A stretch of DNA of 15,895 nucleotides from positions 1 to 15,895 of the forward strand of contig JBHLRO010000039.1 in NCBI GenBank assembly GCA_048882505.1. The letters run 5' to 3'. Shown here one piece after another: positions 1 to 15,895 of this stretch. Numbering within the stretch: the first letter of the stretch is position 1; every line of letters begins with the position of its first letter. The position numbers and the translations under genes were made by a program. The stretch is from Candidatus Thorarchaeota archaeon. GTDB lineage: Archaea > Asgardarchaeota > Heimdallarchaeia > Hodarchaeales > Hodarchaeaceae. The notes beneath the pieces were generated by a model, which searched no databases, was not told the origin of the DNA, and saw nothing but the letters and a program-made list of their open reading frames with translations.

Positions 1-126
1 AATCTGTTAACCCAGATGGATCTTGGCTATTATCTTGAAAACACCTTGGTATATGATCAAAATCCCGAGTCAATAAAGCGAGATTCGTTTACATCCCATA
101 AAAACGAAATTGAAGTTTTCTGGTAG
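1..126 (+). CDS. Possible 3' end of a gene truncated by the window edge (NLLTQMDLGYYLENTLVYDQNPESIKRDSFTSHKNEIEVFW*)
   Basis: Frame +1 is open for 41 codons from base 1 to TAG at 124-126; the other two + frames stop within 12 codons. No recognisable motif. Confidence 0.3.
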   Translation, partial: NLLTQMDLGYYLENTLVYDQNPESIKRDSFTSHKNEIEVFW

Positions 127-349
127 AAAGCAGGATAAAACTACAATCAATTTACCTTGGTGCACTCCCCATTTTTGATTTAGGACTATATTATATGATT
201 TAGGTTGTCCATGTACGTTCACTTCGCATGAAATTCTTCCATAGTCACCGTTTCGTTTTGAAAAGCAGTTGAAGCAGGATATTGGACGCTTGGTGTGCTT
301 GTTCAGTTATTGAGCATTTATTCCTACATTGGGTTCAGTTGCAATCAAT

Positions 350-685
350 TTAGGAACACGTTGACTCTGATGCAGATTTACGCCAAAATGCGATACTTTT
401 TAGTTTTCTGGCAGTGGCATTCCAAATGCACCCACAGCCGGGGAAGGCTTCAAATGAAATAGCTCCTCCACGACAATTTAGTACACATGCTCCACATTCT
501 ATGCATCGTTCGACGGATTGAACCTGATAAGTTCCATCTTCATCGCGGGCAAATACGTTATGAGGGCACACCTCTATACACATCCCACACCTATTACATT
601 TTGATGGATCCAGTTCTGGTACGTGAAGAATTTCCTGTTTTTCCTTTGGAATACTTGCTGTTAGGCTTTTCGTATAACTAGCCAT
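350..685 (-). CDS. hgcB-like: HgcB-like 2x[4Fe-4S] ferredoxin
   Basis: Two cluster motifs, C30-x2-C33-x2-C36-x3-C40-PH and C61-IE-C64-GA-C67-x3-C71, the second matching the HgcB C(M/I)ECGAC signature. Followed by GAI..xxPGCGC (HgcB-type GxGC) and a terminal Cys110. Starts 16 nt after the HgcA-like gene and has its own RBS. TAA stop. Confidence 0.85.
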   Translation of the reverse strand: MASYTKSLTASIPKEKQEILHVPELDPSKCNRCGMCIEVCPHNVFARDEDGTYQVQSVERCIECGACVLNCRGGAISFEAFPGCGCIWNATARKLKSIAFWRKSASESTCS

Positions 686-693
686 GATTGATT

Positions 694-701
694 ACCTACC
701 T
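694..701 (-). promoter_or_regulatory. Ribosome-binding site (AGGTAGGT) for the ferredoxin gene
   Basis: Minus strand reads TGA-AGGTAGGT-AATCAATC-ATG: 8-nt spacer, directly after the upstream stop codon, consistent with an operon. Confidence 0.6.
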
Positions 702-2348
702 TCACCAGCTTATGATTAATTGAAACCCCGTCAAGACAAGTAATATGATTAGTGATATTCCCAAAATGATTATCATTGTCGGATATTCTTCATCGATTTC
801 CGTTGGTTTACTCATAGGGGTCGCTCCTGAATAATCCATCCCTTGGAAATGGCCTATGGAAAATCCTATCACTAACCATTGACCCGTTTCGATAAGAGTT
901 CCATTAGGACCGATTAAACCCAAGGGTGCTAAAAGGATTCCAAGGAGCAACCCGTACATTATACTACGTTTTAAAAATGACCTTGTAGGAAATAACGGAA
1001 ACACTATGGCGAATAATAAATAGGAAAACCATAGTATAGGAAGCAAGAGGATGTTAATTTCAAAAAAATATAGAGTGGGAAAAATCGTAATGCCAATAAA
1101 ACCTGCGAGAAACAACCAAAAGAACAGGAACTTTGAAAGAAAGAATGATTCTTGAAGAGCCATCTCTAACCGTTCTCGTACCCCAAATGAAACGGTTCGC
1201 TGTTTTTCGGTTTTTTTTCCAGTCCGTAGATATGCTGGGATATCCTTGGCATATATTGGCCCAAATCTAGCCCTCCAACCTGTTACTTTCTTAACTTCAC
1301 GATGGTCAATACCCCCAGCCGCAAGTTGTGGGAGTATTATTCTTCGATGATCAACCAACTCACTAATCCGAGTTGCTTTGATTACCTCATCTACTTCTTT
1401 TGTTGAGAATTTATCTCCCCTGGCAGCACACCATACATTCTCTCCCATTGTATCAGCCACAAGAAGGTAGATATCTTGCTTCTGGAGTACGCTGCCCACT
1501 CTTCTGACAGTCAATTGATAGTTTGCTGTAACCAATACAGGTGATTGACTTGTAGGATTTCCATAAGTATACAAACCTGGCTGAATTGGAATCAATGCTG
1601 AGCCTGCTCGTAGTACACAAAGAACTCCACGGATCCATCCCCGAATTCCTCGCATTTTTTGGTCACTAAGGATCGTGGGAACAGGTTTATTCGCACTCTT
1701 CTGAGCAATGATTAACATAAAAGTATCCCCCACAAAGCGTTCTACTTGGAATATCTCAAACCCGCTTGCGCTGAGTCGTTGAGGAAAGTGTTCAAGAGCC
1801 CGAGTCGTTTTTTTAGTTTTCCAATAGGTTCTAATGCCATAGAAAAGTCTCTTGGCTGAGTAGACCAATCGGTTAAATCCCCATCCGTGGGGTTTCGCTT
1901 CGTCCGCGAATGCAATCCTGCCTTCATCAGTCAAGAGCTCCCAACATTGATCAAAGACGAGCTGCTGTTCCAAGAATCGCAGTTCACTTAGAGCTAGTGT
2001 CGAAATGATAAGATCAAATTTCTTTTCAGGCAACGAGATGTCGAGTTGAGTAATATCTCCCCGAATGAATGTAATTTTATCCGCTACATCCTCGTTTTGA
2101 CTTTTTTCTTGAGCGAAAGTGATCATTTTATCAGAAAAATCCATCGCAACGACTTGGGCGCCTTTTTTGGCACAGAGTATCGCTAATGTCCCAGGTCCAC
2201 ATCCCAAATCAAGAACCTTCGATCCCTCTTTGACGTTTTCAAGGATTCTTTCATATACTTCGCTTATTTTACTAGCTGTGAGTTTCGCGATTCCTGACTC
2301 GTATGCATCAGGTGTTTCTTCCAGCACTTTCATGTAAACATAAGCCAA
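702..2348 (-). CDS. hgcA-like: Fusion protein: N-terminal class I SAM-dependent methyltransferase (aa ~1-217) + HgcA-like corrinoid-binding domain (aa ~253-380) + C-terminal multi-pass membrane domain
   Basis: MTase motifs VLDLGCGPG, VVAMDFS, FIRGD, FDLIIS. Corrinoid domain PGLYTYGNP..SPVLVTANY..LLVADTMGENVWCAARG..F..HRRIILPQL..GP..AKDIPAYL..R..F aligns by eye with HgcA/CdhD-family domains; Cys307 codon at 1428-1430. About 5 hydrophobic segments follow, with a DYSGATPMS loop at the position of the HgcA NFTG(S/A)T loop. TTG start supported by an RBS. Confidence 0.9.
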   Translation of the reverse strand: MAYVYMKVLEETPDAYESGIAKLTASKISEVYERILENVKEGSKVLDLGCGPGTLAILCAKKGAQVVAMDFSDKMITFAQEKSQNEDVADKITFIRGDITQLDISLPEKKFDLIISTLALSELRFLEQQLVFDQCWELLTDEGRIAFADEAKPHGWGFNRLVYSAKRLFYGIRTYWKTKKTTRALEHFPQRLSASGFEIFQVERFVGDTFMLIIAQKSANKPVPTILSDQKMRGIRGWIRGVLCVLRAGSALIPIQPGLYTYGNPTSQSPVLVTANYQLTVRRVGSVLQKQDIYLLVADTMGENVWCAARGDKFSTKEVDEVIKATRISELVDHRRIILPQLAAGGIDHREVKKVTGWRARFGPIYAKDIPAYLRTGKKTEKQRTVSFGVRERLEMALQESFFLSKFLFFWLFLAGFIGITIFPTLYFFEINILLLPILWFSYLLFAIVFPLFPTRSFLKRSIMYGLLLGILLAPLGLIGPNGTLIETGQWLVIGFSIGHFQGMDYSGATPMSKPTEIDEEYPTMIIILGISLIILLVLTGFQLIISW

Positions 2349-2356
2349 AGTAATAT

Positions 2357-2361
2357 TCCTC
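2357..2361 (-). promoter_or_regulatory. Ribosome-binding site (GAGGA) for the TTG start of the methyltransferase-corrinoid fusion
   Basis: Minus strand reads GAGGA-ATATTACT-TTG, an 8-nt spacer. Confidence 0.55.
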
Positions 2362-2514
2362 AGAAGGACCTATTTTTATGCCAGAGCAGATTCTGGACAA
2401 ATTGCGTTTTTCGAAATATATATTGAATATTTAGATTGGGGAAAAAGTCTTGGAATTTCCTTGAATTTCCTATTTTAATTCTATGGGAAGAATCGGAAAA
2501 ATAAAAGCAGATTT

Positions 2515-3243
2515 TTACTTACTAATAAAATATCTCATGTCACAGACTTCATCGCCATCTGATAACGTGTGTTCTCTTTGATATTTCCCGCCTTCAACAA
2601 GATGTTCCGCTACGGTATAATCATAGGTACACCACGTTCTTCTAAAAAAACTCATCTCTTCTTGCCCGAATTGGGCATAGAAATCATAGACAGGACATGA
2701 ATAGATATCCAGATGGAATACGTCTCTATCTTTGTAAAGCTTCGTTTTATATCCTGGTTCGCTATATGGAAATTTTAAAGCATCTTTAAGGCGCCTTTCC
2801 AGGTAGGCTATTGGATCCTTCGTCCGTAGTTTAGCCAATTTCATTCTCAACGGATCAAGTATTGGGACTAACCCCTTCATATTCACACGGACTTGCCATA
2901 TCAGGTCTGCGACTAGGCTCGTCGCGTAATTCGGATCTATTTTTTCTTCCACCATTGCTCGGTATATAGCTAGGTGTATCAGTCCGCCATATTCATTCAT
3001 GTAATTACCGATATTATCGTGGTCTTTTAACCAAGGCGATAACTCTTGAATGTTCGATTCTGCCTGAAATATGATGCGTTCCATTTCCTTGGGAGTGAAA
3101 CGACCGTGTTCAGGCATTCCATTCTGTCTGCATCTCGGTGTCAATATCTGGACTATGGCTTTTTTGTGAACTCCCCAAGCTCTTCTACGGATTATTCTTT
3201 TGGTTACTGGCTCGAGCATGCCTATTCTCATTTCATATTCCAC
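2515..3243 (-). CDS. L-2-amino-thiazoline-4-carboxylic acid hydrolase-like (ATC_hydrolase / V4R-like fold) protein; true activity unknown
   Basis: C-terminal pattern DIYSCPVYDFY...WCTYDY...YQREHTLSDGDEVCDMRY with three conserved-looking Cys is typical of this family. Start uncertain (GTG 3243 or a downstream ATG). Confidence 0.75.
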   Translation of the reverse strand: MEYEMRIGMLEPVTKRIIRRRAWGVHKKAIVQILTPRCRQNGMPEHGRFTPKEMERIIFQAESNIQELSPWLKDHDNIGNYMNEYGGLIHLAIYRAMVEEKIDPNYATSLVADLIWQVRVNMKGLVPILDPLRMKLAKLRTKDPIAYLERRLKDALKFPYSEPGYKTKLYKDRDVFHLDIYSCPVYDFYAQFGQEEMSFFRRTWCTYDYTVAEHLVEGGKYQREHTLSDGDEVCDMRYFISK

Positions 3244-3617
3244 GTAGTATGTTAGTATCCAACTTTAAAAACATATCCAAGAAGGCAATTTGAAACAAAA
3301 TGTTTTCGGAGGTGAACTTGATGTATACACATCCTTTTTAACAGTAAATGTTGAGAAAAAATCAACGCATCTTAATAATGTAGTTTATGTCATGCTAAGG
3401 TTTCATTTCTTTTTTATCGTTCAAGATCATAACTTTCTTTTTTTGGTTCTTGTTCCTTGTTTAACCCTGTACTCCATTCAAATCTGTTCAACTGGTAAGA
3501 TTATCAATTTACAAGTAGCCATTTTCGAATAGAACGATCCCAAGTGCTAATCCCTCTTTTTCCGAACAAATAGAACCGATATGGGCAAAAGATAGAGCGG
3601 ATGCCCGTTAAATCTTA

Positions 3618-4121
3618 TTAATAACCTAGTCCTTCTAAATGCTCTGCGTGATGATCATAAGATCCTTCAAGAACTGCAATTAATGGATATCCCTCAAACC
3701 AAGAAAACCTATCGGTATCTACCAGATCATTTTCGTTGACTTTTTCTGCTAATGAGATTAAACGTGAAAAACCTTCTTTCCAATCCTTATAGACACGTTT
3801 CCAGGACTTTTCTCTATTGATTTCATAAATCCATTTGTTAATCTTTTCTAAATCAGCTTCAGATTCTGGATCGAACTCCTCTGGCCACCAATCAAGATCC
3901 GGACTTTTGTTGTTTAATGCTCCTTCGATCCGCGCCACTGAAATCCTTTGCCAAATCCATAAATGCGCAACATCATCTTTTATTGATCTACTAGAATACG
4001 GTCTCTTTACAAACGCTTGATTTTCAGTAAGTTCTGAAAGATGGTTCTTCCATGTGTTAAACATTTCCTTGAGAAGACCAATGCTTTGGTTTTTATCTCT
4101 AAATTTTATTTCTAGGGGCAT
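3618..4121 (-). CDS. DinB-superfamily four-helix-bundle protein (ClbS/DfsB / DUF1706-like)
   Basis: SIKDDVAHL near the N-terminus and HHAEH (H-x3-H) at the C-terminus give the DinB His triad; 167 aa, Trp-rich and helical. AGGAG lies upstream. Confidence 0.75.
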   Translation of the reverse strand: MPLEIKFRDKNQSIGLLKEMFNTWKNHLSELTENQAFVKRPYSSRSIKDDVAHLWIWQRISVARIEGALNNKSPDLDWWPEEFDPESEADLEKINKWIYEINREKSWKRVYKDWKEGFSRLISLAEKVNENDLVDTDRFSWFEGYPLIAVLEGSYDHHAEHLEGLGY

Positions 4122-4284
4122 ATTGGATCTATGGTCTCCTATAATCTATATTTCTTTGTTATACTGAATCAGAATGGTCCGAACTGCTGGATCCCAAGCT
4201 ATCCGATATGGGCCACCTATGCATGAACAGCACTTTTTAAGTGATCCGTTTTCAATGGTCATCACCCGTTTTTTCTTATAAAGA

Positions 4285-4800
4285 GTGACGAACATGATTT
4301 GGGTAACTAGGAATTATGTACATGTAGATAGAGTAGCCTGTCCTTGGCTTATCCAGCGTTTTGTTGATAGAGAGGCTGAGTTCTTATTTGTTCCTGCTGA
4401 GGAGGTTCAAAAAGTCGCTGATGCTGTGGGAGGGACACCGTTTGATATTAAAGGAGCAGAATTGGGTCACGTAGGCGATCAATGTACATTTAACGCCATA
4501 ATCAAGAAATTTAACTTGAGAGATCCAGCTCTTTTGGAGCTTGCAGAGGTCGTTCGTGCTGCAGATACAGGATCTATCGATAAAACCAGTCTCGCTGTTG
4601 GCCTGGAGGCTATCGCGACTGGAATCCCGCTTGTCAGTTTTAACGATCACGATTCGTTACAAAAGCAAATGGCAGTCTATGATTCGTTACTTGCATTCTT
4701 TCGCTACAAACGACTCGAAGAACAGTATCACGGCAAAATGAAACAAATGACAAGAAAAGAACGGAATGAGTTTTTTAAGAAAAAATATAGTTCGCCGTAG
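4285..4800 (+). CDS. Stand-alone chromate-resistance ChrB C-terminal-domain protein (ChrF-like)
   Basis: WVTR..VHVDRVACPWLIQRFVDREAEFLFVP...PFDI.GAELGH.GDQCTF...DPAL..LA..VRAAD is the Chrome_Resist family signature. The N-terminal DNA-binding part of full-length ChrB is absent. ATG at 4294 may be the real start. Confidence 0.85.
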   Translation: MTNMIWVTRNYVHVDRVACPWLIQRFVDREAEFLFVPAEEVQKVADAVGGTPFDIKGAELGHVGDQCTFNAIIKKFNLRDPALLELAEVVRAADTGSIDKTSLAVGLEAIATGIPLVSFNDHDSLQKQMAVYDSLLAFFRYKRLEEQYHGKMKQMTRKERNEFFKKKYSSP

Positions 4801-6022
4801 TTTTTCTGTTTTAAGGGTGTTTAAAGTTTTTAACAATTCAAAGAGCGAATCCCCTTCTTTTCTATTTTATCTTGTGTGCCTAATTGGCGTTCTTGCCCTT
4901 TTAAGTAGCACTATGGCAAAAAACCCCACTCTATCGCTTTTTGCCTCCCATTTGGGATCTGAAGATTGGCAGCTCGGTATTATTGCCGCCATTGGTCCCA
5001 TTCCTGGAATTTTATTGAGTTTTCCGGCCGGTGCCGTCGCGGATAGGTGGGGGAAGATGCGTGTGATCCAACTCTCCCTATTCTTTTTTGCAGCTGCCCC
5101 CTTTTTATACCTAGTCGTCTCTGAATCGTGGCAACTCATCCCTGTACGCTTTTTTCATGGCATTGCTACCGCTATTTTCGGCCCTATCGTCTTGTCTCTT
5201 ATCATTTCATATTACCCTATAAATAGGGCTTCAAGAATGAGCTTCTATTCCTCATTAACCATGGTAGGCCGTGTTATTGCTCCGGCCTTAGCTGGCTTTT
5301 TAATTACCATAGGTTCCTTTATCGCGGTATACTTAACCTGTGCGGTTTCTGGTATTGTAGCTTTTAGTCTAGGATTAACGTTACCACGGGAAAGAGAGTT
5401 ACCTGGTGATGAACGAGCCTCCTTTCGAAGTGGATTAATAGACCTCAAACGCCTTCTCACCAATAAAGGGATAATCATTACAAGCACTGTTGAAGCTATG
5501 ATCTTTTTTGCGTCAGGTGCCTTTGAAACCTTTCTTCCAGTTCAAATGGAGGCCTTTGGGTGGGATCCATTTACTATTGGCCTCATTATGGCGTTCCAGA
5601 TTTCAGCCATCATCTTCATCAAACCATTATCAGGTGCCTTTTCTGATCGATGGAAACGAAAACCTTTTGTCTCGTTGGGTTTGATTGCAAGTGCCTTTTC
5701 ATTCATTGTACTTGCTTCATTTCCAGAAAACTTCCCAGCGTATTTGTTCGGTTCGATTTTTTTTGGCACGGGCGTCGCTTTAACTACTTCCTCGACTGCT
5801 GCTTTAGTATCTGATTTCAGTTTGGAAGATGAAGTAGCTTCCTCGATTGGAATGCTCTCATCTATTATGGATATAGGCCATTCATTGGGTCCTTTTATTA
5901 CAGGTTTTCTCATCAGCTTTACTGGATTTTTTACCGCTTATATTTCCATATGCACTCTCCTTGTCCTCACTGTCTTCGTTTTTCTTTTCATGGTTGTTCC
6001 ACCACCCAAAGAAGCAGTTTAG
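4766..6022 (+). CDS. Major facilitator superfamily transporter (about 12 TM)
   Basis: Motif A in both halves (GAVADRWGKMRV; GAFSDRWKRKPF), RFFHGIA motif and hydrophobic periodicity. The real start may be the in-frame GTG at 4817, which removes the 35-nt overlap with the upstream gene. Confidence 0.9.
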   Translation: MSFLRKNIVRRSFSVLRVFKVFNNSKSESPSFLFYLVCLIGVLALLSSTMAKNPTLSLFASHLGSEDWQLGIIAAIGPIPGILLSFPAGAVADRWGKMRVIQLSLFFFAAAPFLYLVVSESWQLIPVRFFHGIATAIFGPIVLSLIISYYPINRASRMSFYSSLTMVGRVIAPALAGFLITIGSFIAVYLTCAVSGIVAFSLGLTLPRERELPGDERASFRSGLIDLKRLLTNKGIIITSTVEAMIFFASGAFETFLPVQMEAFGWDPFTIGLIMAFQISAIIFIKPLSGAFSDRWKRKPFVSLGLIASAFSFIVLASFPENFPAYLFGSIFFGTGVALTTSSTAALVSDFSLEDEVASSIGMLSSIMDIGHSLGPFITGFLISFTGFFTAYISICTLLVLTVFVFLFMVVPPPKEAV

Positions 6023-6373
6023 CACCATATTTTTCCATATTGGTCTCTAGAGGCACAGATCAGACCAGGTTTCGGTTTAAAAGCCAATAAATTCAGAAAT
6101 AGTATGCTTCCATAGCCGAAAACTTCTCCAATAACATTTCTTTAAATCCAGACGATGATTCTGCCCGTCATTCTCCATGAATTTGCGATGCAACAAATCC
6201 AACTTTGGTTATCTTGATTCTTATTTGGAAGCCTCCATCGCTTTTGCCAGATTGTTCCTGGGTTCAAGATTGACCAGGAAGAACATAAGTATGGTTCTTA
6301 ACCGCTATGGATCCCAGTTACATTTGGGATTGCTGGTTAGGCGATGTCTTATTCAGCTGATCTATGAATAGGC

Positions 6374-6392
6374 TTAAAAACCTGGTTTTTAA
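6374..6392. promoter_or_regulatory. Perfect 19-bp palindrome TTAAAAACC-T-GGTTTTTAA upstream of the TPR gene; candidate operator
   Basis: 9-bp arms with a 1-nt centre, 55 nt upstream of the GTG at 6448. Confidence 0.35.
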
Positions 6393-6447
6393 TCCTAGAG
6401 TCTCAATTTTTAATTGGCATTTGCCAAGATCTTCTAATTTTAGATGA

Positions 6448-7119
6448 GTGGGAAGTAAGATGTGTCCATTTTTTAGGCGAAAGAAAGAACCAGAAACTAT
6501 TGAGGAATGTCATTCCGAAGCAAGAAAGCACATAGCAAAATTGATCAAATCTTCATCCAATAAAGATCTTGAAAATGCTCTTTTGTATCTTAATAAGGGA
6601 GTACAACTTGATCCAACCGTGATCGAAACATATGAGATGATGGGAACAGTTCTTAAGGCAGTTAAACGGCACAACGAAGCGCTAGAAGTGTACATAGAAG
6701 CTTTATCTCATGTTCATGATAAAGTACGAATCATGCGATCGATTATCATGAATCTTTTGGACGCTGAAGAAACTCTTGACGAAGCGCTGGAATGGGCAAA
6801 TCGGGCTCTTGAAATAGACCCTCAAAACCTCAAGGTAATAAACCTAAAGGCAGTATGTAAACACAAGAAGGGTTTAAGAGCAGAGGCCCTCCAAACAGTT
6901 GATCTAGCTCTACAAATCGATCCCAATGATATCTACAATCTAAATCTCAAGGGAACACTTCTGATGAGTGACAGGAAATGGGAGGAGGCAAAAAAGGTTG
7001 AAGAAAAGTTCTTGGCGCTATTAAAACCTAGGGATCAATATTATGAAGAGATGAGAAGCCAATCCTTGAAGAAGATTGAGCTCATTAATGCCATGATTGC
7101 AAAGGAATCCAAAAATTGA
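6448..7119 (+). CDS. Tetratricopeptide-repeat protein
   Basis: Repeated TPR-like units such as ALLYLNKGVQLDP, EALEWANRALEIDPQN, EALQTVDLALQIDPND and NLKGTLLM. Start is GTG 6448 or ATG 6460. Confidence 0.8.
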   Translation: MGSKMCPFFRRKKEPETIEECHSEARKHIAKLIKSSSNKDLENALLYLNKGVQLDPTVIETYEMMGTVLKAVKRHNEALEVYIEALSHVHDKVRIMRSIIMNLLDAEETLDEALEWANRALEIDPQNLKVINLKAVCKHKKGLRAEALQTVDLALQIDPNDIYNLNLKGTLLMSDRKWEEAKKVEEKFLALLKPRDQYYEEMRSQSLKKIELINAMIAKESKN

Positions 7120-7364
7120 TTCGATTTAATAGACTTTTAATCCCGAATTTCTTTGTCCAGATTTTAAACCAGGTGGAATGATCTCGTCATGTATCGAAAG
7201 ATTTCAGGGAAATGTATGGATAAATGATTCTTCTCCCTTTTTTCAGAGAAAGCTCGCCCATTCTTCAAAAGAATATAAAATAAAACAACAGGCGATTGTC
7301 TGATTATATAACACATATTAATTGGGTATCATACCTGTCGTAGATTGAACGCGGGGTTATTAGG

Positions 7365-9308
7365 ATGTCTTTCCCCAAAACATTTCTGGTTCTTTGCCTA
7401 GTAGCTGGAGGATTCCTCTTTATAACATCCGTTTCAGGTGTGGGAGAATCCACTTCCTATCAAGTCCGACCATTTCTTAAATCATCCAAAATTCAGGCTT
7501 TTCGAACCAGATTAGCCTCGGGTTTTTTGGATCACAATCCGATTGCCATCGACTCGAATGAAAACTTTGCTACTACCGTAACCGCAAAAGGTTGGTCTGG
7601 AAATGGCTCCGTATCCAATCCCTTTATCATTGATGGATTAAACATAGAAAGTTTCCCCCCCCAAGGGATATCAATATCTATAAGCAACACTGATAAATAT
7701 TTTGAAATAATCAACTGTTTTCTAACCGGCCCCCATGGGATTGTTTTTTCCCATGTCAAAAATGGTGCAATCATAAATAATGTTTTGAAAAATACCCTCG
7801 GAGGAAACAATGAAAGAATGGGCATTATCCTAGCAGATAATTCAAGTTATAATACAATCGCTAATAACACTTTATTTAATATTGAGTTTCCAATTGCCGT
7901 GGACGGAAACAATAACCTCATAGAATACAATCAGCTGCATGATAACATCAACGGGATATCTATTCGAGGAAATAACAATCTGATCGCTAATAACACCATT
8001 CAAGATGCGGAGGGAGGACCTGGGATCCAGATTGGTGATGCTCTAAATAATACCATTTCCCAAAATATGCTGCTACAGAATTTCTACGGCATCGATCTAG
8101 TCAATACCAATAACTGCAAAATTATCCAAAACAGCATTGTAAGTAGCAAAATTGGGGTAGTCCTCGGTCTAAAATCAACAAATAACTTGGTTACAACGAA
8201 TATCTTTCAGAATAATCTGGACCTAACATCTCAAGCAGTCGATAACGGGATCAATAATATGTTTCATCAAAACTACTGGAGCGAATGGACAGTCCCGGAT
8301 GATAATGGGAATGGAATTGTTGATAATGTGTATTTGATAGAGGGTAGAGCAGGCAACACTGACCCGTTCCCTTTAGCGTCCGTAGATCAAATTGATGGTC
8401 TTCATTTTCTTACATTTCCAAGTTTGATACGACCTAAAAAGGGGGAACTTCTGGCTGAATATTCCCTTCTACAGTGGAATTCACCCAATGACTCTATGGG
8501 CCACTCCATTAGCTATTCTCTATATTTTTCCTCGGATAATGGGAACTCCTGGGTTCAATTAATCATTAATCACACCAGCACCTATTATACCTGGGATACA
8601 TCCTCCTTGACTGATGAATCCCAGGTTCTGATCAAGATTGTGGCCCTATGTTCTGATGGATGGATAACAGCCTATTTTTCAGAAACCTTCATTTTGGAAA
8701 GCGGGAATTTAAGTTCAAACCTCCAAATGATTACCCTCCTTGTCGTTCTCATCGCGATTGTTGGAATAGGAAGCTTTCTTGTTTACAATGCTAAAATTAA
8801 ATCTCCTCAAGGATTTAATGAAATCCTCCAGTCCGCTCCTATCAATGTTTTAAAAAATCTTTATCACAAAGTGGTCATTGGAGTGGATAATATTGCTTCA
8901 GGAATAATTCCTGAATTACAATCATTTCCTGTCTTGGAACCGCCTACTGAATCAGTTTCTTTAATAGAATATTTTCCCTCTGAAATTCGGCATGATCTGC
9001 TATCTAAATTAAAAGGAAGATCCGTCTTAACCTTAATTGAAATCGCTTATCACTATCCTGACAATGTTCACACACTTGAGTTATCAAAAATTTTGGATAT
9101 TTCGCCAACAACACTTTCTTACGAGATCAAAAGATTGCACTCACTTAATTATCTCAAATTTGAACCTTTTGCGCAAGGAGTTCACGATGCTCGTTTTCGA
9201 TTCTACTCTCTTACACCTAAGGGTGCTCATCTTCTCTATTTGTTAAAAGGGGTTCTAAATACGGCAATAATGCGAATGAGGGAATTTGAATCTGGTGGAA
9301 TGAGGTAG
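7365..9308 (+). CDS. Single-pass receptor-like protein: signal peptide, right-handed beta-helix (NosD/CASH-like) repeats, Fn3/Ig-like domain, TM helix, cytoplasmic winged helix-turn-helix
   Basis: Hydrophobic N-terminus (aa 6-25); GI.I..NNN.I.NN.I repeats ending in NYWS..D.NGNGIVD..DPFPL; WNSPND..SYSLYFSSDNGNSW..YTWDT; TM at aa ~455-474; LSKILDISPTTLSYEIKRL..NYL..FYSLTPKG wHTH at aa ~552-632. Confidence 0.85.
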   Translation: MSFPKTFLVLCLVAGGFLFITSVSGVGESTSYQVRPFLKSSKIQAFRTRLASGFLDHNPIAIDSNENFATTVTAKGWSGNGSVSNPFIIDGLNIESFPPQGISISISNTDKYFEIINCFLTGPHGIVFSHVKNGAIINNVLKNTLGGNNERMGIILADNSSYNTIANNTLFNIEFPIAVDGNNNLIEYNQLHDNINGISIRGNNNLIANNTIQDAEGGPGIQIGDALNNTISQNMLLQNFYGIDLVNTNNCKIIQNSIVSSKIGVVLGLKSTNNLVTTNIFQNNLDLTSQAVDNGINNMFHQNYWSEWTVPDDNGNGIVDNVYLIEGRAGNTDPFPLASVDQIDGLHFLTFPSLIRPKKGELLAEYSLLQWNSPNDSMGHSISYSLYFSSDNGNSWVQLIINHTSTYYTWDTSSLTDESQVLIKIVALCSDGWITAYFSETFILESGNLSSNLQMITLLVVLIAIVGIGSFLVYNAKIKSPQGFNEILQSAPINVLKNLYHKVVIGVDNIASGIIPELQSFPVLEPPTESVSLIEYFPSEIRHDLLSKLKGRSVLTLIEIAYHYPDNVHTLELSKILDISPTTLSYEIKRLHSLNYLKFEPFAQGVHDARFRFYSLTPKGAHLLYLLKGVLNTAIMRMREFESGGMR

Positions 9309-9504
9309 CTGTCCTCCCAATGGAGAAAAAAGAATCCTCCTGGTTGGTTTAATTGGATGCATACCTGATGAACCCCTCGAAATTTCATTGTATTTTGGGT
9401 AGCGACATAAAAAACGGGATCTAACTCCTTGTCCACTTATAAAAGGGGAACGAGGTTAAATTTTACATCAGAATATGGAGTTGCCTGACCTTAGGTTGTC
9501 CCAA

Positions 9505-9547
9505 TTTCCACGCGTTTCCACTTGTTTCCGGCATGATCAATGGAAAC
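9505..9547. repeat. Three TTTCC(A) direct repeats at exact 10-bp spacing plus one inverted copy; candidate regulator-binding array
   Basis: TTTCCA at 9505 and 9515, TTTCC at 9525, and TGGAAAC (reverse complement of GTTTCCA) at 9541-9547. Confidence 0.4.
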
Positions 9548-9584
9548 ATTCTAAAGCGTTGGCTTTGTTCTAAATATGATAACA

Positions 9585-9591
9585 AGGAGGT
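9585..9591 (+). promoter_or_regulatory. Strong ribosome-binding site AGGAGGT for the TTG start at 9601
   Basis: AGGAGGT followed by a 9-nt spacer and TTG. Confidence 0.7.
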
Positions 9592-9600
9592 GGAGCTACC

Positions 9601-10869
9601 TTGAAATCGGAAACTCCATTAGACTTCGAATATTCCTTTAGAAGCCAGTTTAATAATTTCGGTTATCTCAAAAAATTCAGTTCATTGGTTCTGTTGCCAT
9701 TCTTACCAATCTATACCGTCAGTAAGGGTTTCCAGATGAGATCCAGGAAAAAACACCCATCGGAACCCCCACCTAGCATATGGAAGTATGTAATTGTAAT
9801 ATGCTCAGTCTACTTCTTCACAGCTTATCCACTCATCTTTTCTGTCGCCTATGTCCTACTTCAAGTCTTTTTATTTCCGGTCACTCTTGTTGTAACATAT
9901 TTCTTGAATAGAAGAGACTTGGTTGTCGAAAAGATGGTTTCTATTCCCCGTAAAGAGAAAGATTTTCAGGTAATTGGATTTGGAAAAATAAGCTTGACCT
10001 TTTTAGGCCTCATCATTCTTGTTGCACTTGTTGGGAACTATTTCCTGCTCGCCACATTTACAGCGTTTGTGTTCATTTTATTTCCGAGGATTTATAGATA
10101 CCTTTATTTCGTTCCCAAAAGATTGTTGGCGCTATCATATCCATTTTTGGCATTTCTCAGCTACATTCCTGGAGTGAATTTAAGAGGTACTTGGTTTATT
10201 GAAGCTGACTCCGAGGTAAAAACCATGAAAAACGGTATGGATTTGGCCAAGTTTGTCATCAGCAATTGGAAACCTTTTTTCGTGCTAAATGTAGGTATTT
10301 CAGCTCTAATCGTTAGAATTATTCTTTTATTGAGAGGAGACCCCCCAGTCCAATCGATAATATCAATAGATGCCCTTTCAAGCTTTGGATTTCTGTTTAT
10401 GTTTCTTGCAGTCCCCATTATTATGGCAGTATATTTTGTATGGGTTTGGGTCTGGGAAGATGCGGAATTGAAGGTCGCCAAAACCAGTGTAAGCACCGCA
10501 GGATTAGATGATTCAGGTAATGAAATCATAGAAACCACGTTGCTCACATTTGCATCCGACTCAATTAGTAATGTCTTCACGCTGGCATTTGGAATCCCCT
10601 CAGTTGCCTGGTTAGTCGATAAAATGGTTTCAACAGATCAACTGGCGAGCGGAGGAATTGTTGGACTCGTAGTTATCATTCTTATTTTCTTCGTGTTAAC
10701 TGGAGCTAACACTATCTTTATGGGAATTATGTATTATCGCTCAGGTATTCACGCTGAGCTCGTAAACAAATTACGAAATGATATCAGGGAATCTTATACC
10801 TCTGAGGAAGAGAGTTCTGTAAAAATCTGCTATTCATCGGTCCAACCGATCAAATTAGAGGTTTTATAA
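9601..10869 (+). CDS. Polytopic membrane protein of unknown function
   Basis: 422-aa ORF with roughly 8-9 hydrophobic segments and a strong RBS; no family motif that I recognise. Confidence 0.75.
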   Translation: MKSETPLDFEYSFRSQFNNFGYLKKFSSLVLLPFLPIYTVSKGFQMRSRKKHPSEPPPSIWKYVIVICSVYFFTAYPLIFSVAYVLLQVFLFPVTLVVTYFLNRRDLVVEKMVSIPRKEKDFQVIGFGKISLTFLGLIILVALVGNYFLLATFTAFVFILFPRIYRYLYFVPKRLLALSYPFLAFLSYIPGVNLRGTWFIEADSEVKTMKNGMDLAKFVISNWKPFFVLNVGISALIVRIILLLRGDPPVQSIISIDALSSFGFLFMFLAVPIIMAVYFVWVWVWEDAELKVAKTSVSTAGLDDSGNEIIETTLLTFASDSISNVFTLAFGIPSVAWLVDKMVSTDQLASGGIVGLVVIILIFFVLTGANTIFMGIMYYRSGIHAELVNKLRNDIRESYTSEEESSVKICYSSVQPIKLEVL

Positions 10870-10978
10870 CCTGAATCCCACACTCTAGTGAATAATTGAG
10901 GGCTTTCTCGATAGATCCTACTTTCAAATTTCATATCATTCGTCATCGAGAAAAAATCTTAAACAAATTCCCTGAATC

Positions 10979-11827
10979 CTATCTGCTATATTCCTTGTTG
11001 AAAAATGCGGCCCAGCGTTCAATGGTCGCTTTCTTCCGTTCGCTCCGATCCCGAGAATAATATTCTGGAAAGCAAGGATCTTGCGCAATTTCTTCCCAAG
11101 TTAACCCTTCATCAAGTTTGTTACGTAAGAAATCAATACTTTGGACGAAGAACTCATTAATTTCTCTTAGATCTGTTAGGGTGGCAGGTGGCACATGTCC
11201 ACTAATAATGATCTCCGGATTGCGAGCGATTAACTCTTCAATCACCTGCTGCCAGCGGACAATATTACAGGTCTCGTCACCCCCGTAAGGAAACTGTCGT
11301 GCAAAAACAACATCACCCGAAAGCAATGTTTTCGATTCAGGTTGCCATAAATAGGCACTCCCCATGGTGTGTCCATCACCTTGTACCAGATCCAATCTTT
11401 TATCTCCATAGAGTATCATACTCTTCTCAAAACACACATTCGGATGGGTTAGGATGAGGTTCTTGACGCCATACCCTCCTGCCTCCCACTCTGCTCGATC
11501 ATCAGGTGATTCGTGAAGCCAGATTTCTTGTTCAAAGCGTAAGGTCTGCTGGCGGGTCTCCTGACTGGAAATGATGGGTACATCAGAAAAGACCTGGTTC
11601 CCAAAGGTATGATCAGCGTGGTGATGAGTTAAAATCAACCCTGACACTGGTTTATCGAAATAGTGCTCAACAACACTTCGCCATTCGGCGGCTAGCTCCC
11701 AGTTCAACATCGAATCTATCACAAAGACTTTTTTCCCGAGATCTATTGCTGCACTATTTCCATAGCCTACATCGGTCCAAATCAACTCATTGTTTACCGT
11801 TTTGTACTCTATCACTTCTTTCTCCAT
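10979..11827 (-). CDS. Metallo-beta-lactamase-fold hydrolase (cyclase-like subgroup)
   Basis: VFVIDS, THHHADHTFGN (HxHxDH), GHTMG, LSGD and IISGH metal-ligand motifs in the canonical order. Confidence 0.9.
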   Translation of the reverse strand: MEKEVIEYKTVNNELIWTDVGYGNSAAIDLGKKVFVIDSMLNWELAAEWRSVVEHYFDKPVSGLILTHHHADHTFGNQVFSDVPIISSQETRQQTLRFEQEIWLHESPDDRAEWEAGGYGVKNLILTHPNVCFEKSMILYGDKRLDLVQGDGHTMGSAYLWQPESKTLLSGDVVFARQFPYGGDETCNIVRWQQVIEELIARNPEIIISGHVPPATLTDLREINEFFVQSIDFLRNKLDEGLTWEEIAQDPCFPEYYSRDRSERKKATIERWAAFFNKEYSR

Positions 11828-11902
11828 CGCACATTTATCAACTCGCGAGCATTCTAAGAGGCTTTCAAGCTCTTTAGAGGTAATCTAGCAGGTAACAATG
11901 AT

Positions 11903-12700
11903 TCAATTCTCTCTTTTTGTGAAATTAAATTCGTTAATAACTCCTCCAAAAAAGTAATAATGCTCTGTTATCATATCTTCTTGTTTTATCCCTCTTTCAT
12001 CCATTTCAGACGTAATTTCCCTTTTTAAACGATAAAGATTCGCGAAAAAATCAGTGATGAGTTCAGCTATTCTTAAGGAATGCTTGGGTGATGAAATATT
12101 CAGAGCTATAGAGAGAAGTGAGTACCCTCCAAAGGGATAATCCTTTCGTTCGGGGATAAGATCATTTTTAATCGCATTTTCTACCTTTTCAAAGTTGCTT
12201 AGGATAAAATTCTCAATACAGTGATGATATGCTAAGGAGCGTCTTGTACTTTGAGCCATTTGGCCTAAATCTGGCTTTTTCTTTAAGGTATTAATCATCT
12301 CTTGGCTGATTTCTTCGACTGGAATTCCTGACCATTTTTTGAATATTGCAGGAATCTCGTTTTCAAATACCTCTAGACTGTCCGATGTTCTATAGTATTC
12401 TCTTGTGATCTCGGTTAATTGGAAGAACTTCCCTCTATTAGTGGATGTTATTTCCTGATCAATTTCAATTATTCTGGGGGTGAATTTCTGTATTTCAGTT
12501 AAATGATGAAATATCGTTGACTCTGTTCTTTGTAACAGCTTAGATAATGTTTTTATGTTTAATGATCCGTACATATGTAAAGCAGTTATTATTGCATATC
12601 TTGTATCCACTTTAAAAACTTCAGTTAATACTTTATTTAGTTCTTCGTTTCCTTTACTAGATCCATTATCGTTATTCCCGTTTTTACTCTCTTTTTGCAT
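11903..12700 (-). CDS. ArsR-like winged helix-turn-helix transcriptional regulator with a C-terminal extension
   Basis: TRYAIITALHMYGSLNIKTLSKLL..TESTIFHHLTEI...KFFQLT wHTH pattern; GGAGGT RBS upstream. Confidence 0.75.
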   Translation of the reverse strand: MQKESKNGNNDNGSSKGNEELNKVLTEVFKVDTRYAIITALHMYGSLNIKTLSKLLQRTESTIFHHLTEIQKFTPRIIEIDQEITSTNRGKFFQLTEITREYYRTSDSLEVFENEIPAIFKKWSGIPVEEISQEMINTLKKKPDLGQMAQSTRRSLAYHHCIENFILSNFEKVENAIKNDLIPERKDYPFGGYSLLSIALNISSPKHSLRIAELITDFFANLYRLKREITSEMDERGIKQEDMITEHYYFFGGVINEFNFTKREN

Positions 12701-12741
12701 GAGAAATTACCTCCAAGGAAAATTATATTAAACTTCGGTCG

Positions 12742-12783
12742 TGGAATAAATTCGATGATCGAATATATAATTAGGTTATTCCA
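12742..12783. promoter_or_regulatory. Divergent promoter region with nested inverted repeats; candidate operator
   Basis: ATTCGAT-G-ATCGAAT palindrome at 12750-12764 and outer TGGAATAA/TTATTCCA arms at 12742-12749 and 12776-12783. TATA-like TTATATTAAA (12723-12732) and TATATAA (12764-12770) are nearby. Confidence 0.5.
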
Positions 12784-13737
12784 ATGAATCTCAAAATTGT
12801 GAAAAATGATTATCAGTTTAGAAAATTAAAAAATAAAGAACTTGGAGATTTTATTGAATATGCTTTTGAATCTACTAGAGATAGGGCAGAGAAAGGCCTT
12901 GGAGTGAGTTTTAAATTTCTTAAAAGGATGTGTCAGTTAAATAGATTTCTTTTAGGAATCCCATGGAAATTAATCGCCCGAAACTCAGACCATATTGTAG
13001 TTATCAAAGAAGAAACAATTTGTGCTGGTTTTACAGTCATTCATGATAAAAAGAAAAATGAGTATGCACTTGGTAATCTCTTTACAAGACCAAAATTTCA
13101 GGGGCAAGGCATCGGGAATCTTGTCATGGAATATATTGTTGAGAGATATGGAAGAATGAAGTTAATTTTAGATGTTGAAACTAATAATGAAGCTGCGTTA
13201 CATCTGTATAGAAAATTTGGTTTTTCCGCAAAATCTTCAATTCAAGAATTCCTTTTTAACTCTCCCCTTAAAACTCGTTCCTTTCCCTCAGGATTTTACG
13301 CACGTAAGGCAAGAAAAGAAGATTTGAATAATCTTGACCGTTTAGAGGCCGAAATAGTCGATATGGGGGATATTATTAAGCGTTACAAAAAGTCATTTAA
13401 TAAAACGAAAGAAAGGAGATTTCGATTGCGGAATGAGATCCCCGCTGTATTATTAAATGAAAACGGAGGAATTTTGGGAATCGGTAGAGCAATGTGGACA
13501 AAATTTATCCCTAATTTCGTTCAGATCATCGCTACAGCTGTTTTACCAGAAGCAAAATTAGCATACCCGGGTTTTATTTCTTTTTTGACCGAGTTAGCTG
13601 CTGAAAAAAACATCTTTAGAGGAGCATGGGAGAGAACCGAAAAAACCGAAGTTTTTTTTGAAGAAATGAAACCTTATATTGGCAAACCTTTCAGTATTAG
13701 TTGGGTCATGGAGAGAGTACCCGTTTCGTCAAATTAA
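12784..13737 (+). CDS. GNAT-family N-acetyltransferase (N-terminal GNAT domain plus a probable degenerate second GNAT-like domain)
   Basis: Motif A LFTRPKFQGQGIGNLVM and motif B LDVETNNEAALHLYRKFGF; the second half begins YARKARKEDL, typical of a GNAT N-terminus. Confidence 0.85.
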   Translation: MNLKIVKNDYQFRKLKNKELGDFIEYAFESTRDRAEKGLGVSFKFLKRMCQLNRFLLGIPWKLIARNSDHIVVIKEETICAGFTVIHDKKKNEYALGNLFTRPKFQGQGIGNLVMEYIVERYGRMKLILDVETNNEAALHLYRKFGFSAKSSIQEFLFNSPLKTRSFPSGFYARKARKEDLNNLDRLEAEIVDMGDIIKRYKKSFNKTKERRFRLRNEIPAVLLNENGGILGIGRAMWTKFIPNFVQIIATAVLPEAKLAYPGFISFLTELAAEKNIFRGAWERTEKTEVFFEEMKPYIGKPFSISWVMERVPVSSN

Positions 13738-13783
13738 GTTTCCAAGCGTTTTGTTACATCAGTATAAGTCAAATCCTTTACGC

Positions 13784-13805
13784 AAAAAAGGTGGACAACT
13801 CCACC
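13784..13805 (-). terminator. Hairpin + T-tract (intrinsic-terminator-like) on the minus strand
   Basis: Minus strand reads GGTGGA-GTTG-TCCACC-TTTTTT: perfect 6-bp stem, 4-nt loop, 6 T. Confidence 0.45.
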
Positions 13806-14103
13806 AATTAACCAACTATTTCTTCCTTTTTTTAAAGGATATTGATAAGAATACGTTTAGCAGAAATATGTTATTCGAGTTCCTCAGATTATTACCTGGT
13901 TTTTCTTGAAAAAGGAGCAACAGGGAGATTCTACTTGTTTAACAAAGGAAACTGTCATCAGAATAAAGAAAAATCGAATATCAAATTTGGTGTGGGGCGA
14001 TTTCATGCCCATTATGCATCCTTTAATGAAGCTCTGGAAATTACTATATGATAATATGTCAGAAATCAAACTAACTAGTTTATTGACCTCTTGGTGAATA
14101 TTT

Positions 14104-15813
14104 ATGTCTCAAATAATGAAATATGGCTCCCTCCTTTCCCCATTGTTCAGATTAAAGAGTTATCTAGAGAGAACTATTTCTCAACCGCTAAAACGTCACT
14201 TTGCCCCAAAACCTTCTGACAGTACATATGAGCTGGGCAATTGGAATAATGAAGCAACTGTTCAAACGAAGTATGGAGTGGTTCTTGGATTTTCAGACAA
14301 AAATACTTGGTGTTGGAAAGGAATTCCCTATGGAACACCTCCAGTGGGAGATTTGAGATGGAAAGCACCACTTGATCCTATTCCTTGGCTTGGAACTCGT
14401 AAAACAACAAAATTCGGTAATTCCGCTGCGCAGGTTATGCTTATCATGGGTCCAACAGGTTCAGAAGACTGTCTTTACCTCAATATATGGCGTCCTATGA
14501 GCTCGGAGTCCGATCTCCCCGTGTACTTGTATATTCATGGGGGAGGTAATTCTATTGGGTCATCTAACACGGCCAGCTATTTTGGTAATACCTTAGCTGG
14601 ACATTCGAACCTGCTTTACGTTTCTGTCAACTATCGTCTCGGGGCAATGGGCTGGTTCAAACACCCTGCTGTGACTGGTTCTGGGTCTTCAGAAGACCAA
14701 AGCGGGAATTATGGAACTCTAGATCTCGTTAAATCCTTACAATGGGTAAGGGATAACATCAAGGCTTTTGGAGGTAATCCAAACAATGTTACTATTGCGG
14801 GTGAGTCTGGAGGCGCATTTAATGTGCTTTCACTTTTAGTTTCTCCCTCTGCAAAGGGACTCTTCCATCGGGCTGTCGTTGAGAGTGGTATAACGTCATT
14901 ATGTTCTCTTGATGAAGCAAAAGCTCAGGTTGAACGGCTTTTGGTTGCCTTGCTTATTAAAGATCGAAAAGCTGCCAATGAAAAAGAAGCTGTGCAGTAC
15001 ATCAGTAAAATGCAAGATAATGAGATTAATACATATCTCCGTTCGAAGTCAGCCTTTACGATTACAAAGAATATTCCTACTATTGCTTTTGGAATGGCAG
15101 AATGGCGTTCCATCATTGCTGATGGGACAGTTATACCTGCAGAGGGGTATAAGGTTTTCTCATCTGGGGAATGGCCAAACATGGTACCAGTAATGATTGG
15201 TTGCACAAAAGATGAAATGAACCTCTTTGGTCACTTCACTAAGGATCCCACTCTGAGCTCCAGGGTTTGGCATTATCATTCTATGTTATGGCGCGCAAAT
15301 GGTGTTGATCTACCAGCTAGCGAAATGACCTCGAACAGCATCGTGCCTGTTTATGTCTACAGGTTTGATTGGGGAAGCCCAGATGATCAAGGGGTCAGTG
15401 TTCTGCCCAAAAACAAAGGGCAAGAGCTAGGAGCTCACCATGGCGCTGAGATCCCCTTCTTCCTAGGTACAAGTGGATCGGATTTTGCCTTTTTGATAGG
15501 AAAGACTCACACAGAGGAAAACAGGATCGGTCGTGAAAAATTGAAAGCCTTGTGCATGAACTATCTGGCAAATTTTGCAAGAACTGGGAATCCTAATAAT
15601 AATGGGCTCCCACATTGGCCTGCTTGGAACAACACTGAAGGGAAAGACAAGGTTCTTATTCTTGATGCAGATTTCAACGACTTAAGGTTATCATACACCA
15701 GTGAAAAAACCACCGTTCAAGATGTACTGGCTCTTGTTAATTCTGAGTTCAATGAACCTGAACGAGGGCAGATATTGACGATGCTTGAAGATTTCATCCC
15801 CTTCAATGAATAG
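14104..15813 (+). CDS. Type-B carboxylesterase/lipase (para-nitrobenzyl-esterase-like alpha/beta hydrolase)
   Basis: KGIPYG.PPVG.LRW, SEDCLYLNIW, oxyanion HGGG, NYRLG, nucleophile GESGG, acid KDE, His in GAHHGAEIPF, and NFARTGNPN; GGTGA RBS 6 nt upstream. Confidence 0.93.
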   Translation: MSQIMKYGSLLSPLFRLKSYLERTISQPLKRHFAPKPSDSTYELGNWNNEATVQTKYGVVLGFSDKNTWCWKGIPYGTPPVGDLRWKAPLDPIPWLGTRKTTKFGNSAAQVMLIMGPTGSEDCLYLNIWRPMSSESDLPVYLYIHGGGNSIGSSNTASYFGNTLAGHSNLLYVSVNYRLGAMGWFKHPAVTGSGSSEDQSGNYGTLDLVKSLQWVRDNIKAFGGNPNNVTIAGESGGAFNVLSLLVSPSAKGLFHRAVVESGITSLCSLDEAKAQVERLLVALLIKDRKAANEKEAVQYISKMQDNEINTYLRSKSAFTITKNIPTIAFGMAEWRSIIADGTVIPAEGYKVFSSGEWPNMVPVMIGCTKDEMNLFGHFTKDPTLSSRVWHYHSMLWRANGVDLPASEMTSNSIVPVYVYRFDWGSPDDQGVSVLPKNKGQELGAHHGAEIPFFLGTSGSDFAFLIGKTHTEENRIGREKLKALCMNYLANFARTGNPNNNGLPHWPAWNNTEGKDKVLILDADFNDLRLSYTSEKTTVQDVLALVNSEFNEPERGQILTMLEDFIPFNE

Positions 15814-15895
15814 TTGGATTTCGATGACTGAACAGAAGGATACTGAGTACTCGAGCTGTAATTGATGTTTACACATTTCTTCAAAACTAGGGAAT

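Follow-up and report, generated by a model that had tools for sequence, protein, structure and literature searches.

What might an archaeon do with a methyltransferase (MTase) built into a protein that resembles the mercury methylase HgcA? The question is raised by a two-gene module on contig JBHLRO010000039.1 of the Candidatus Thorarchaeota archaeon assembly GCA_048882505.1, of which we analyzed positions 1 to 15,895 (the whole stretch is called the window below). On the minus strand, positions 702-2348 encode a 548-residue fusion of a CpaM-type S-adenosylmethionine (SAM) MTase, an HgcA-like corrinoid domain and 5 predicted transmembrane (TM) helices, and positions 350-685 encode a 111-residue ferredoxin that resembles HgcB. 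The names of the closest homologues identify the genome as that of an Asgard archaeon of the Heimdall/Hod lineage, and its source is a sediment metagenome. We conclude that the module is probably a two-gene, membrane-anchored, SAM-dependent corrinoid methyl-transfer unit that belongs to the CpaM/HgcAB-like family and stands apart from the canonical HgcAB clade.

The open reading frame (ORF) of the fusion contains no stop and comprises 548 codons from a TTG, or 543 if translation begins at the ATG at codon 6. We prefer the TTG, which is likely the real start, because the five-residue extension that it adds is conserved (x-Y/T-V-Y/F before MK) and homologues begin with MSYVYMK or MATVFMK. Two strain variants, one in codon 3 and one in codon 5, are synonymous, which gives this start weak additional backing. 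The N-terminal 220 residues (positions 1689-2348) form the MTase domain. Pfam families Methyltransf_31, Methyltransf_25 and Methyltransf_11 matched aa 40-151 with E values of 1e-17 to 1e-19, and the domain shows the hallmarks of class I SAM-dependent MTases, namely a Rossmann-like fold, a motif I rich in glycine and an acidic residue following strand 2. Motif I reads VLDLGCGPG (aa 44-53), with G49, G51 and G53 invariant and D70 nearly invariant, and further invariant residues (M6, L9, E10, P13, E122 and E150/P153) are specific to the family. Foldseek aligned the domain with SAM-bound class I MTases at template modeling scores of up to 0.76. Across 68 fusion homologues, the only conserved cysteine of the MTase domain was the one in the SAM motif; nothing in the domain thus corresponds to the metal(loid) site of ArsM, in keeping with a corrinoid acceptor.

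Residues 253-378 (positions 1215-1592) form a predicted corrinoid-binding domain of the CdhD/CFeSP/HgcA type (CFeSP, corrinoid iron-sulfur protein). The CdhD family PF03599 matched aa 256-373 with 58 bits against a gathering cut-off of 24.8, residues 318-440 of the CFeSP large subunit in the Protein Data Bank (2h9a_A) matched with an E value of 1.7e-10, and Foldseek supported the assignment. The cap helix reads ..GENVWC(307)AARGD.., in which C307 (codon at positions 1428-1430), N304 and W306 are invariant in 68/68 fusion homologues; the cysteine was recovered by pattern in every locus listed. By analogy with Cys93 of HgcA (PMC11588087), Cys307 would ligate cobalt. The C-terminal membrane domain (aa 390-547, positions 708-1181) has 5 predicted TM helices, which span residues 390-422, 427-452, 458-479, 485-507 and 515-547 in an AlphaFold2 model. 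The loop between TM4 and TM5 (..GMDYSG(508)ATP..) is conserved, with an invariant G508, and is predicted to be cytoplasmic.

The single-chain AlphaFold2 model, built from 68 homologues, was confident across the domains (mean predicted local distance difference test [pLDDT] score of 93.7, predicted template modeling score of 0.88) and consisted of a Rossmann-type N-terminal domain and an alpha/beta corrinoid domain, with five long helices at the C terminus. Foldseek ranked the deposited integrative model of HgcAB (9a0b_A) as its closest match and SAM-bound class I MTases next. By sequence, the only solved relatives were generic MTases and the corrinoid domain of CFeSP, with no experimental HgcA structure among them. 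An earlier note on this DNA had described one ORF carrying a SAM MTase, a corrinoid domain with C307 and TM helices; the ORF, the Pfam matches and the structural model all bear this anatomy out.

The ferredoxin gene lies 16 nt downstream of the fusion, exactly the spacing reported in the earlier note, and the spacer (positions 686-701, minus strand) holds the purine-rich, Shine-Dalgarno-like AGGTAGGT. Matches to Fer4 families and two CxxCxxCxxxC motifs (C30-C40 and C61-C71, the second ending in C-R, not C-P) predict a 2x[4Fe-4S] protein. Its thiol tail comprises G-C84-G-C86 and a single near-terminal C110; in 21 partner ferredoxins, C86, which is equivalent to Cys73 of HgcB, is invariant and C110 is nearly so. 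Asgard ferredoxins that partner such fusions carry GCGC(L/I/V)W right after the second cluster and a Cys-rich C terminus, usually ..CCG. These features parallel the GVGC and the terminal Cys pair of HgcB, both required for Hg methylation (PMC11588087). The conservation of the SAM motif, of C307 and of the eight cluster cysteines indicates that selection keeps the domains and motifs intact.

We then asked to which family the two proteins belong. The N terminus of the fusion passed the CpaM model NF043040 (216 positions), with aa 3-217 aligned to positions 2-216 at 220 bits against a cut-off of 180 (221.8 bits in a six-frame search of the genome), and the HgcA-like corrinoid protein that a CpaM protein is expected to be next to or fused with is encoded in the same ORF. 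The earlier note had named such a family, which does exist. The corrinoid and TM region scored higher with HgcAB_like (NF043039) than with HgcA (NF040863), at 243 and 214.5 bits, respectively, and was below the cut-off of each (285 and 275). The HgcAB_like match joins aa 253-515 to positions 14-281 of 350, a partial coverage that reflects the absence of the ferredoxin part from the fusion chain; that family is defined by corrinoid, TM and ferredoxin parts in one polypeptide, whereas the ferredoxin is here a separate gene. The HgcA match covers aa 255-539, and no HgcA match above the cut-off was found anywhere in the genome. The cap helix departs from the HgcA motif N(V/I)WCA(A/G)GK, although the Cys itself is present: the window has NVWCAARGD and MTase-linked loci have NVWCAA(G/R)G.., versus NVWCA(A/S)GK in all 30 canonical loci. 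HgcB (NF040864) was the best match of the ferredoxin, with 68.2 bits against a cut-off of 99; both cluster motifs and C86 are present, with one terminal Cys (C110) instead of a pair. To call the protein a full HgcA, as the earlier note did, was thus too strong, since both cut-offs were missed and the window falls outside the canonical clade (see below).

By their profiles and motifs, the fusion and its ferredoxin are a variant of the known CpaM/HgcAB-like kind, in which the MTase sits on the corrinoid protein and the free ferredoxin carries HgcB-like thiols. The arrangement is neither rare nor new to databases, as NCBI labels whole fusion proteins CpaM. In the literature, a search for "corrinoid protein-associated methyltransferase" found no paper, matches to CpaM being unrelated acronyms. 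Term searches of papers on mercury-methylation genes returned fused hgcAB and no MTase fusion, and a similar search of the SAM-donor paper (PMC11588087) returned no mention of a fusion or of an MTase domain.

To evaluate how the modules are combined, we surveyed 80 loci from species-representative genomes, classed by a script on their ORF content. The window's arrangement, an MTase-corrinoid-TM fusion with a separate ferredoxin (T1), was found in 37 loci, window included, from Thor-, Prometh- (Loki-) and Hermodarchaeota, Chloroflexota and Poribacteria. Single proteins that unite MTase, corrinoid, TM and ferredoxin parts (T2) were scored in 3 loci of Desulfobacteraceae and Lentimicrobiaceae, and one 591-aa protein is probably another such triple fusion, mis-scored as T1. 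In 10 loci (T3; Odin- and Bathyarchaeota, Dehalococcoidia, deltaproteobacteria and others), a CpaM of ∼219 aa is split from a corrinoid-TM-ferredoxin protein of ∼360 aa. The remaining 30 loci (T4; Desulfobacterota, Methanoregula and others) have canonical HgcA and HgcB. The script detected an adjoining ferredoxin in 29 of the 37 T1 loci; it missed those of the window and of its paralogue because both are on the minus strand. All 10 fused HgcAB-like genes with visible upstream DNA have a CpaM, directly upstream in 9 of them and ∼1.8 kb upstream in L098; the pair in L082, for example, scored 296 for CpaM (cut-off 180) and 395 for HgcAB_like (cut-off 285). In contrast, no CpaM-like MTase lies within 3 kb at any of the 30 canonical hgcAB loci, in line with the statement of the earlier note that canonical HgcA lacks a SAM-MTase domain. 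The co-occurrence of MTase, HgcA-like and HgcB-like modules is therefore obligatory outside the canonical group. In triple fusions and T3 forms, a linker to the ferredoxin replaces the fifth helix, which is consistent with ferredoxin, corrinoid domain and TM4-TM5 loop all lying in the cytoplasm.

We inferred a careful maximum likelihood (ML) tree of the corrinoid and TM region with IQ-TREE, using Asgard CdhE as the outgroup (supports are given as ultrafast bootstrap/SH-aLRT). The 30 canonical HgcA proteins formed one clade (100/99) from which the window was excluded, and the window fell within an 18-member Asgard T1 clade (86/80). The T1 label required 4 changes on the tree, at least 3 of them forced by starred branches, so fusion or fission occurred repeatedly. 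With three permutations of fusion and these repeated changes, the Rosetta-stone argument for a functional link between the modules is stronger than the earlier note, which proposed it, could know. Branching among the MTase-linked groups and canonical HgcA was weakly supported (21-46). The free ML tree places canonical HgcA inside the MTase-linked forms and makes the MTase-fused bacterial proteins of L027 and L030 its sister (46/31), and monophyly of all MTase-linked rows was not rejected (approximately unbiased test, p-AU 0.249). As the deep branching is unsupported, we make no claim on the ancestral state or on polarity. Published HgcA phylogenies (PMC10083202) place Asgard sequences in a "fused HgcAB" clade, and N-terminal alignment columns were trimmed. 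As a separate observation, the proteins of L027 and L030 (uncultured bacteria) and of L019 (Poribacteria) are MTase fused and have a near-canonical look, with the cap helix NVWCAAGGGKFS and a ferredoxin with GVGC and a terminal Cys; from these motifs, they would be good proteins in which to look for Hg methylation by an MTase-fused form.

Modeling of the fusion together with the ferredoxin gave a median ipSAE of 0.77, compared to 0.00 for the best of 3 controls. Of 80 solved complexes, 58 reach this ipSAE mark, as do 2 of 110 mismatched pairs; the benchmark holds only roughly here, as our own alignments were used. At least 69% of contacts were in common between runs, and the pLDDT of the partner was at least 67. 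The modeled interface involves C307, residues 341-350 and 362-386 and the TM4-TM5 loop (504-525) on the fusion side and both cluster loops and residues 80-94, which contain the GCGC tail, on the ferredoxin side. The model supports, without proving, docking of the ferredoxin at the face formed by the corrinoid domain and the TM4-TM5 loop.

From this arrangement, we propose the following methyl relay. The ferredoxin would dock where the corrinoid domain faces the cytoplasm and bring cobalamin to the Co(I) state. The class I MTase of the fusion would then pass the methyl group of SAM to Co(I), yielding CH3-Co(III) held by Cys307. Finally, an acceptor on the cytoplasmic side of the membrane would take over the methyl group, near the TM4-TM5 loop and the thiols of C84, C86 and C110, which the ferredoxin might present. 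Our leading guess for this acceptor is a soft metal(loid), As(III) for instance, Hg(II) being less likely. The use of SAM has a precedent, already invoked in the earlier note: the cobalamin of purified HgcAB was methylated by SAM (PMC11588087), so SAM-to-Co chemistry exists in the superfamily.

ArsR-family genes and/or an ACR3 arsenite pump lie within ∼5 kb in 11 of 17 loci of the window's Asgard clade; the ACR3 match scored 295 with TIGR00832 (cut-off 282.8), and ArsR is directly upstream in 5 loci of the clade. Such a context is a hint of a metalloid. Several points nevertheless weigh against the proposed relay or its acceptor. No ars genes were found at the window or at its three closest orthologous loci, where the ferredoxin is the only common neighbor, so the metalloid guess rests on cousins at ∼30-35% identity. 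An ArsR-family gene is also near canonical hgcAB in 6 of 30 loci, a link already known for canonical hgcAB (PMC7438021); being common to that group, it does not discriminate between targets. Because the HgcAB integrative model 9a0b, which draws on coevolution data, is deposited, the pass of the complex model may partly reflect likeness to it. We know of no class I Rossmann MTase, of the NCBI-curated CpaM/HgcAB-like family or any other, shown to methylate a protein-bound corrinoid. Moreover, canonical HgcAB uses SAM without an added MTase (PMC11588087), so the MTase may do something else.

A bolder version of the relay would make CpaM-type domains the first class I SAM MTases that act on protein-bound cob(I)alamin, with the Asgard form methylating a metalloid (e.g., arsenic) or another soft metal at the membrane by HgcAB-type chemistry, independently of ArsM. 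We regard this version as speculative, with a rather low chance of being right. If it were true, MTase-linked forms may be ancestral and canonical HgcAB a derivative without the MTase; the free tree permits an MTase-linked ancestral state, and the data leave the matter undecided (p-AU 0.25 for the alternative).

A different explanation is that the module is a true mercury methylase, an HgcAB orthologue with an added SAM-binding domain. The cap-helix Cys in its NVWCAA core, the five TM helices and the ferredoxin's C86 and C110 agree with it, and in the free tree canonical HgcA is nested among MTase-linked forms, with a sister pair (L027 and L030) that received support values of only 46/31. However, the scores of 214.5 versus 275 for HgcA and 68 versus 99 for HgcB, the exclusion of the window from the canonical clade at 100/99, its ARGD in place of the GK ending found in 30/30 canonical cap helices and the single terminal Cys all argue otherwise. 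In addition, Pyrococcus furiosus and Methanococcoides methylutens, the two organisms with fused HgcAB-like genes that have been tested, make no methylmercury (PMC5893877 and PMC10083202). We consider this explanation unlikely. Only marginally less credit goes to the idea that the MTase itself methylates the final substrate (a metalloid, a thiol, a lipid or another small molecule) and that the corrinoid protein and the ferredoxin are merely its redox partner, for example reducing a pentavalent methyl-arsenic intermediate. Weak matches of the MTase to ArsM, TehB and UbiE-type enzymes and the ars-gene contexts at related Asgard loci are consistent with such a role; the MTase domain, however, has no conserved substrate-binding Cys, the cap-helix Cys, a feature of methyl transfer by HgcA, is invariant, and the repeated fusion of MTase and corrinoid domains suggests direct hand-over.

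According to a 2026 preprint on the native role of HgcAB, heterologous HgcAB dechlorinates CCl4 (bioRxiv 10.64898/2026.04.26.720869), and the combination of a membrane corrinoid protein with a low-potential ferredoxin would fit a corrinoid-dependent reductive dehalogenase or a halomethane-processing enzyme. This would leave an intact, conserved and obligatorily linked SAM MTase without a role, and the preprint is a single, unreviewed one on canonical HgcAB, which is from another clade; we hold this explanation to be improbable. The chance that the locus is an assembly chimera or a decaying pseudogene is negligible in our estimate. What could be said for an artefact is that the only contig spanning the whole stretch, a separately assembled 2590-bp Logan contig that covers window positions 300-2500 without a difference, is probably from the source sample, and that this copy type was not found in the 9 other same-genus genomes searched. 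No Logan contig from the two non-source runs bridged positions 1657-2080, their contigs covering parts only. However, these two other sediment runs of the same study showed strain variants by substitution only, with 16 synonymous and 10 mostly conservative nonsynonymous changes and no indels, and the frame is open and its AlphaFold2 model confident. Seventeen clusters (90% identity) of the same length are 62-76% identical to the window protein, the named ones being from Heimdall-, Hod- and Thorarchaeota metagenome-assembled genomes (MAGs). Many further full-length homologues share 30-40% identity, and ∼25 clusters (50% identity) in a library of 1.84 billion representatives align end to end. 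Above all, the same architecture recurs in >45 independent loci of Asgard archaea, Chloroflexota, Poribacteria and Desulfobacteraceae. The survey that the earlier note called for thus found the recurrence, and together with the spanning contig it excludes the mis-assembly that the note had named as a possible refutation.

Returning to the favored methyl-transfer unit, we compared it with known systems. The "fused HgcAB" of P. furiosus and M. methylutens (Gilmour 2018; Lin 2023) corresponds to the HgcAB-like fusion NF043039. With CpaM plus HgcAB-like pairs, the window module shares all components (a CpaM-type MTase, an HgcA-like corrinoid and TM protein, a dicluster ferredoxin) and the obligatory MTase linkage. 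It differs in its fusion points, with the MTase joined to the corrinoid protein and the ferredoxin encoded on its own, in having five TM helices instead of the four of HgcAB-like fusions and in keeping the GCGC motif and the near-terminal Cys in its ferredoxin, both of which are missing from the tails of fused HgcAB-like ferredoxins. With HgcA and HgcB (NF040863 and NF040864), it has in common the cap-helix Cys, the five TM helices and the downstream 2x[4Fe-4S] ferredoxin with the Cys73 equivalent; ArsR-family neighbors occur in both groups, and SAM as the methyl source has been shown for HgcAB. It is set apart from them by AARGD in place of A(A/S)GK, the N-terminal MTase, the single terminal Cys instead of a pair and scores below both cut-offs.

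CFeSP (CdhE/AcsC with CdhD/AcsD) has a homologous cobalamin-binding domain and is a methyl carrier that cycles between Co(I) and CH3-Co(III). Unlike the window module, it is soluble, lacks the cap-helix Cys and receives its methyl group from methyl-tetrahydrofolate or methyl-tetrahydromethanopterin through a TIM-barrel MTase. CdhE was not found in the window genome, nor in 5 of 6 class relatives sampled, the sixth having a partial match below the cut-off; the module is therefore not a Wood-Ljungdahl component. A functional analogy, and no more than that, exists with the reactivation module of MetH, where cobalamin, once brought to Co(I) by a low-potential electron donor, is methylated by SAM. 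MetH differs in its unrelated SAM-binding fold, in being soluble and in performing a repair reaction rather than a main cycle. ArsM is also a class I SAM MTase, and some related Asgard loci lie beside ArsR and ACR3; unlike ArsM, which needs no corrinoid, the window domain scored 48.7 bits against a cut-off of 263 and lacks the As(III)-binding cysteines.

Environmental surveys count Asgard archaea as putative mercury methylators from hgcA-like genes (PMC12484752). Genes like the window fusion fail the HgcA criteria and may be miscounted in such surveys. As the use of SAM by HgcAB is a recent and unexpected finding, a large HgcA-like group that is always wired to a SAM MTase, in many cases by fusion, provides independent genomic support for SAM-to-cobalamin chemistry across the family, and the fusion offers a one-polypeptide system in which to study it. 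If the acceptor were arsenic or another metalloid, the module would represent a second, corrinoid-based route of biological metalloid methylation.

The window genome contains a second module of the same architecture on another contig (locus L002; genome G000, contig C5, ∼98.6-102.2 kb), with 29-30% identity to the first. On the minus strand of this locus, an 88-aa ferredoxin (136-402) is preceded by a 553-aa fusion (424-2085) with the cap helix NVWCAAGGK and by a gene for a 380-aa radical SAM protein (2086-3228) that abuts the start of the fusion. Three genus relatives keep a pair of fusion and ferredoxin of this type, with 43-50% identity. The radical SAM gene was considered as a part of the module and discarded, since it is not beside the orthologous pairs in these relatives. 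More broadly, a CpaM-like match with E <= 1e-30 was present in 76 of 201 Asgard genomes, as free-standing (∼220 aa) or fused (∼555-670 aa) frames and often in 2-3 copies per genome. The window-type copy (CpaM score of 222) was not found in the 9 other same-genus genomes searched, where only free 220-aa MTases or the type of the second paralogue (112-143 bits) occur. A recent transfer, or a stray in binning, could account for the 15.9-kb contig, which has its closest relatives in other Heimdall/Hod MAGs.

The GC motif and the C-terminal thiols are missing from the partner ferredoxins of Chloroflexota and from every fused ferredoxin tail. In the Chloroflexota partners (L021, L022, L026, L032, L033, L041, L044, L049, L050 and L054), the first cluster motif is degenerate, C-x5-C-x3-CP, with one Cys missing. 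From these motifs, the Chloroflexota ferredoxins may hold one cluster and serve a different substrate.

The neighbors of the module in the window encode ATC_hydrolase-like, DinB-like, ChrB_C and major facilitator superfamily (MFS), tetratricopeptide repeat, NosD-like beta-helix, metallo-beta-lactamase, GNAT and carboxylesterase proteins. A reading of the window copy as part of a detoxification island found no support, as the window has no ars genes and the orthologous loci share the ferredoxin only. Directly upstream of the fusion, at 166 nt, lies a gene for a 242-aa protein (2515-3243, minus strand) with a weak C-terminal match to ATC_hydrolase (33.5 bits) and no NCBIfam match; it is absent from the orthologous loci. 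On the plus strand, a gene for a ChrB C-terminal domain protein (4285-4800; PF09828, 154 bits) runs 35 nt into the start of an MFS transporter gene (4766-6022). By its domains, this pair looks like a small regulator or sensor plus an exporter, and orthologous loci do not have it next to the module. Further along are genes for a 647-aa NosD/beta-helix protein (7365-9308, plus strand) and two ORFs without a Pfam match, of 422 aa (9601-10869, plus strand) and 265 aa (11903-12700, minus strand). In several Promethearchaeota loci, a gene for a gelsolin-repeat protein (PF00626, weak; L035:10070-10936, minus strand) lies ∼30 nt downstream of the module ferredoxin, placing an Asgard "eukaryotic signature" gene beside these modules.

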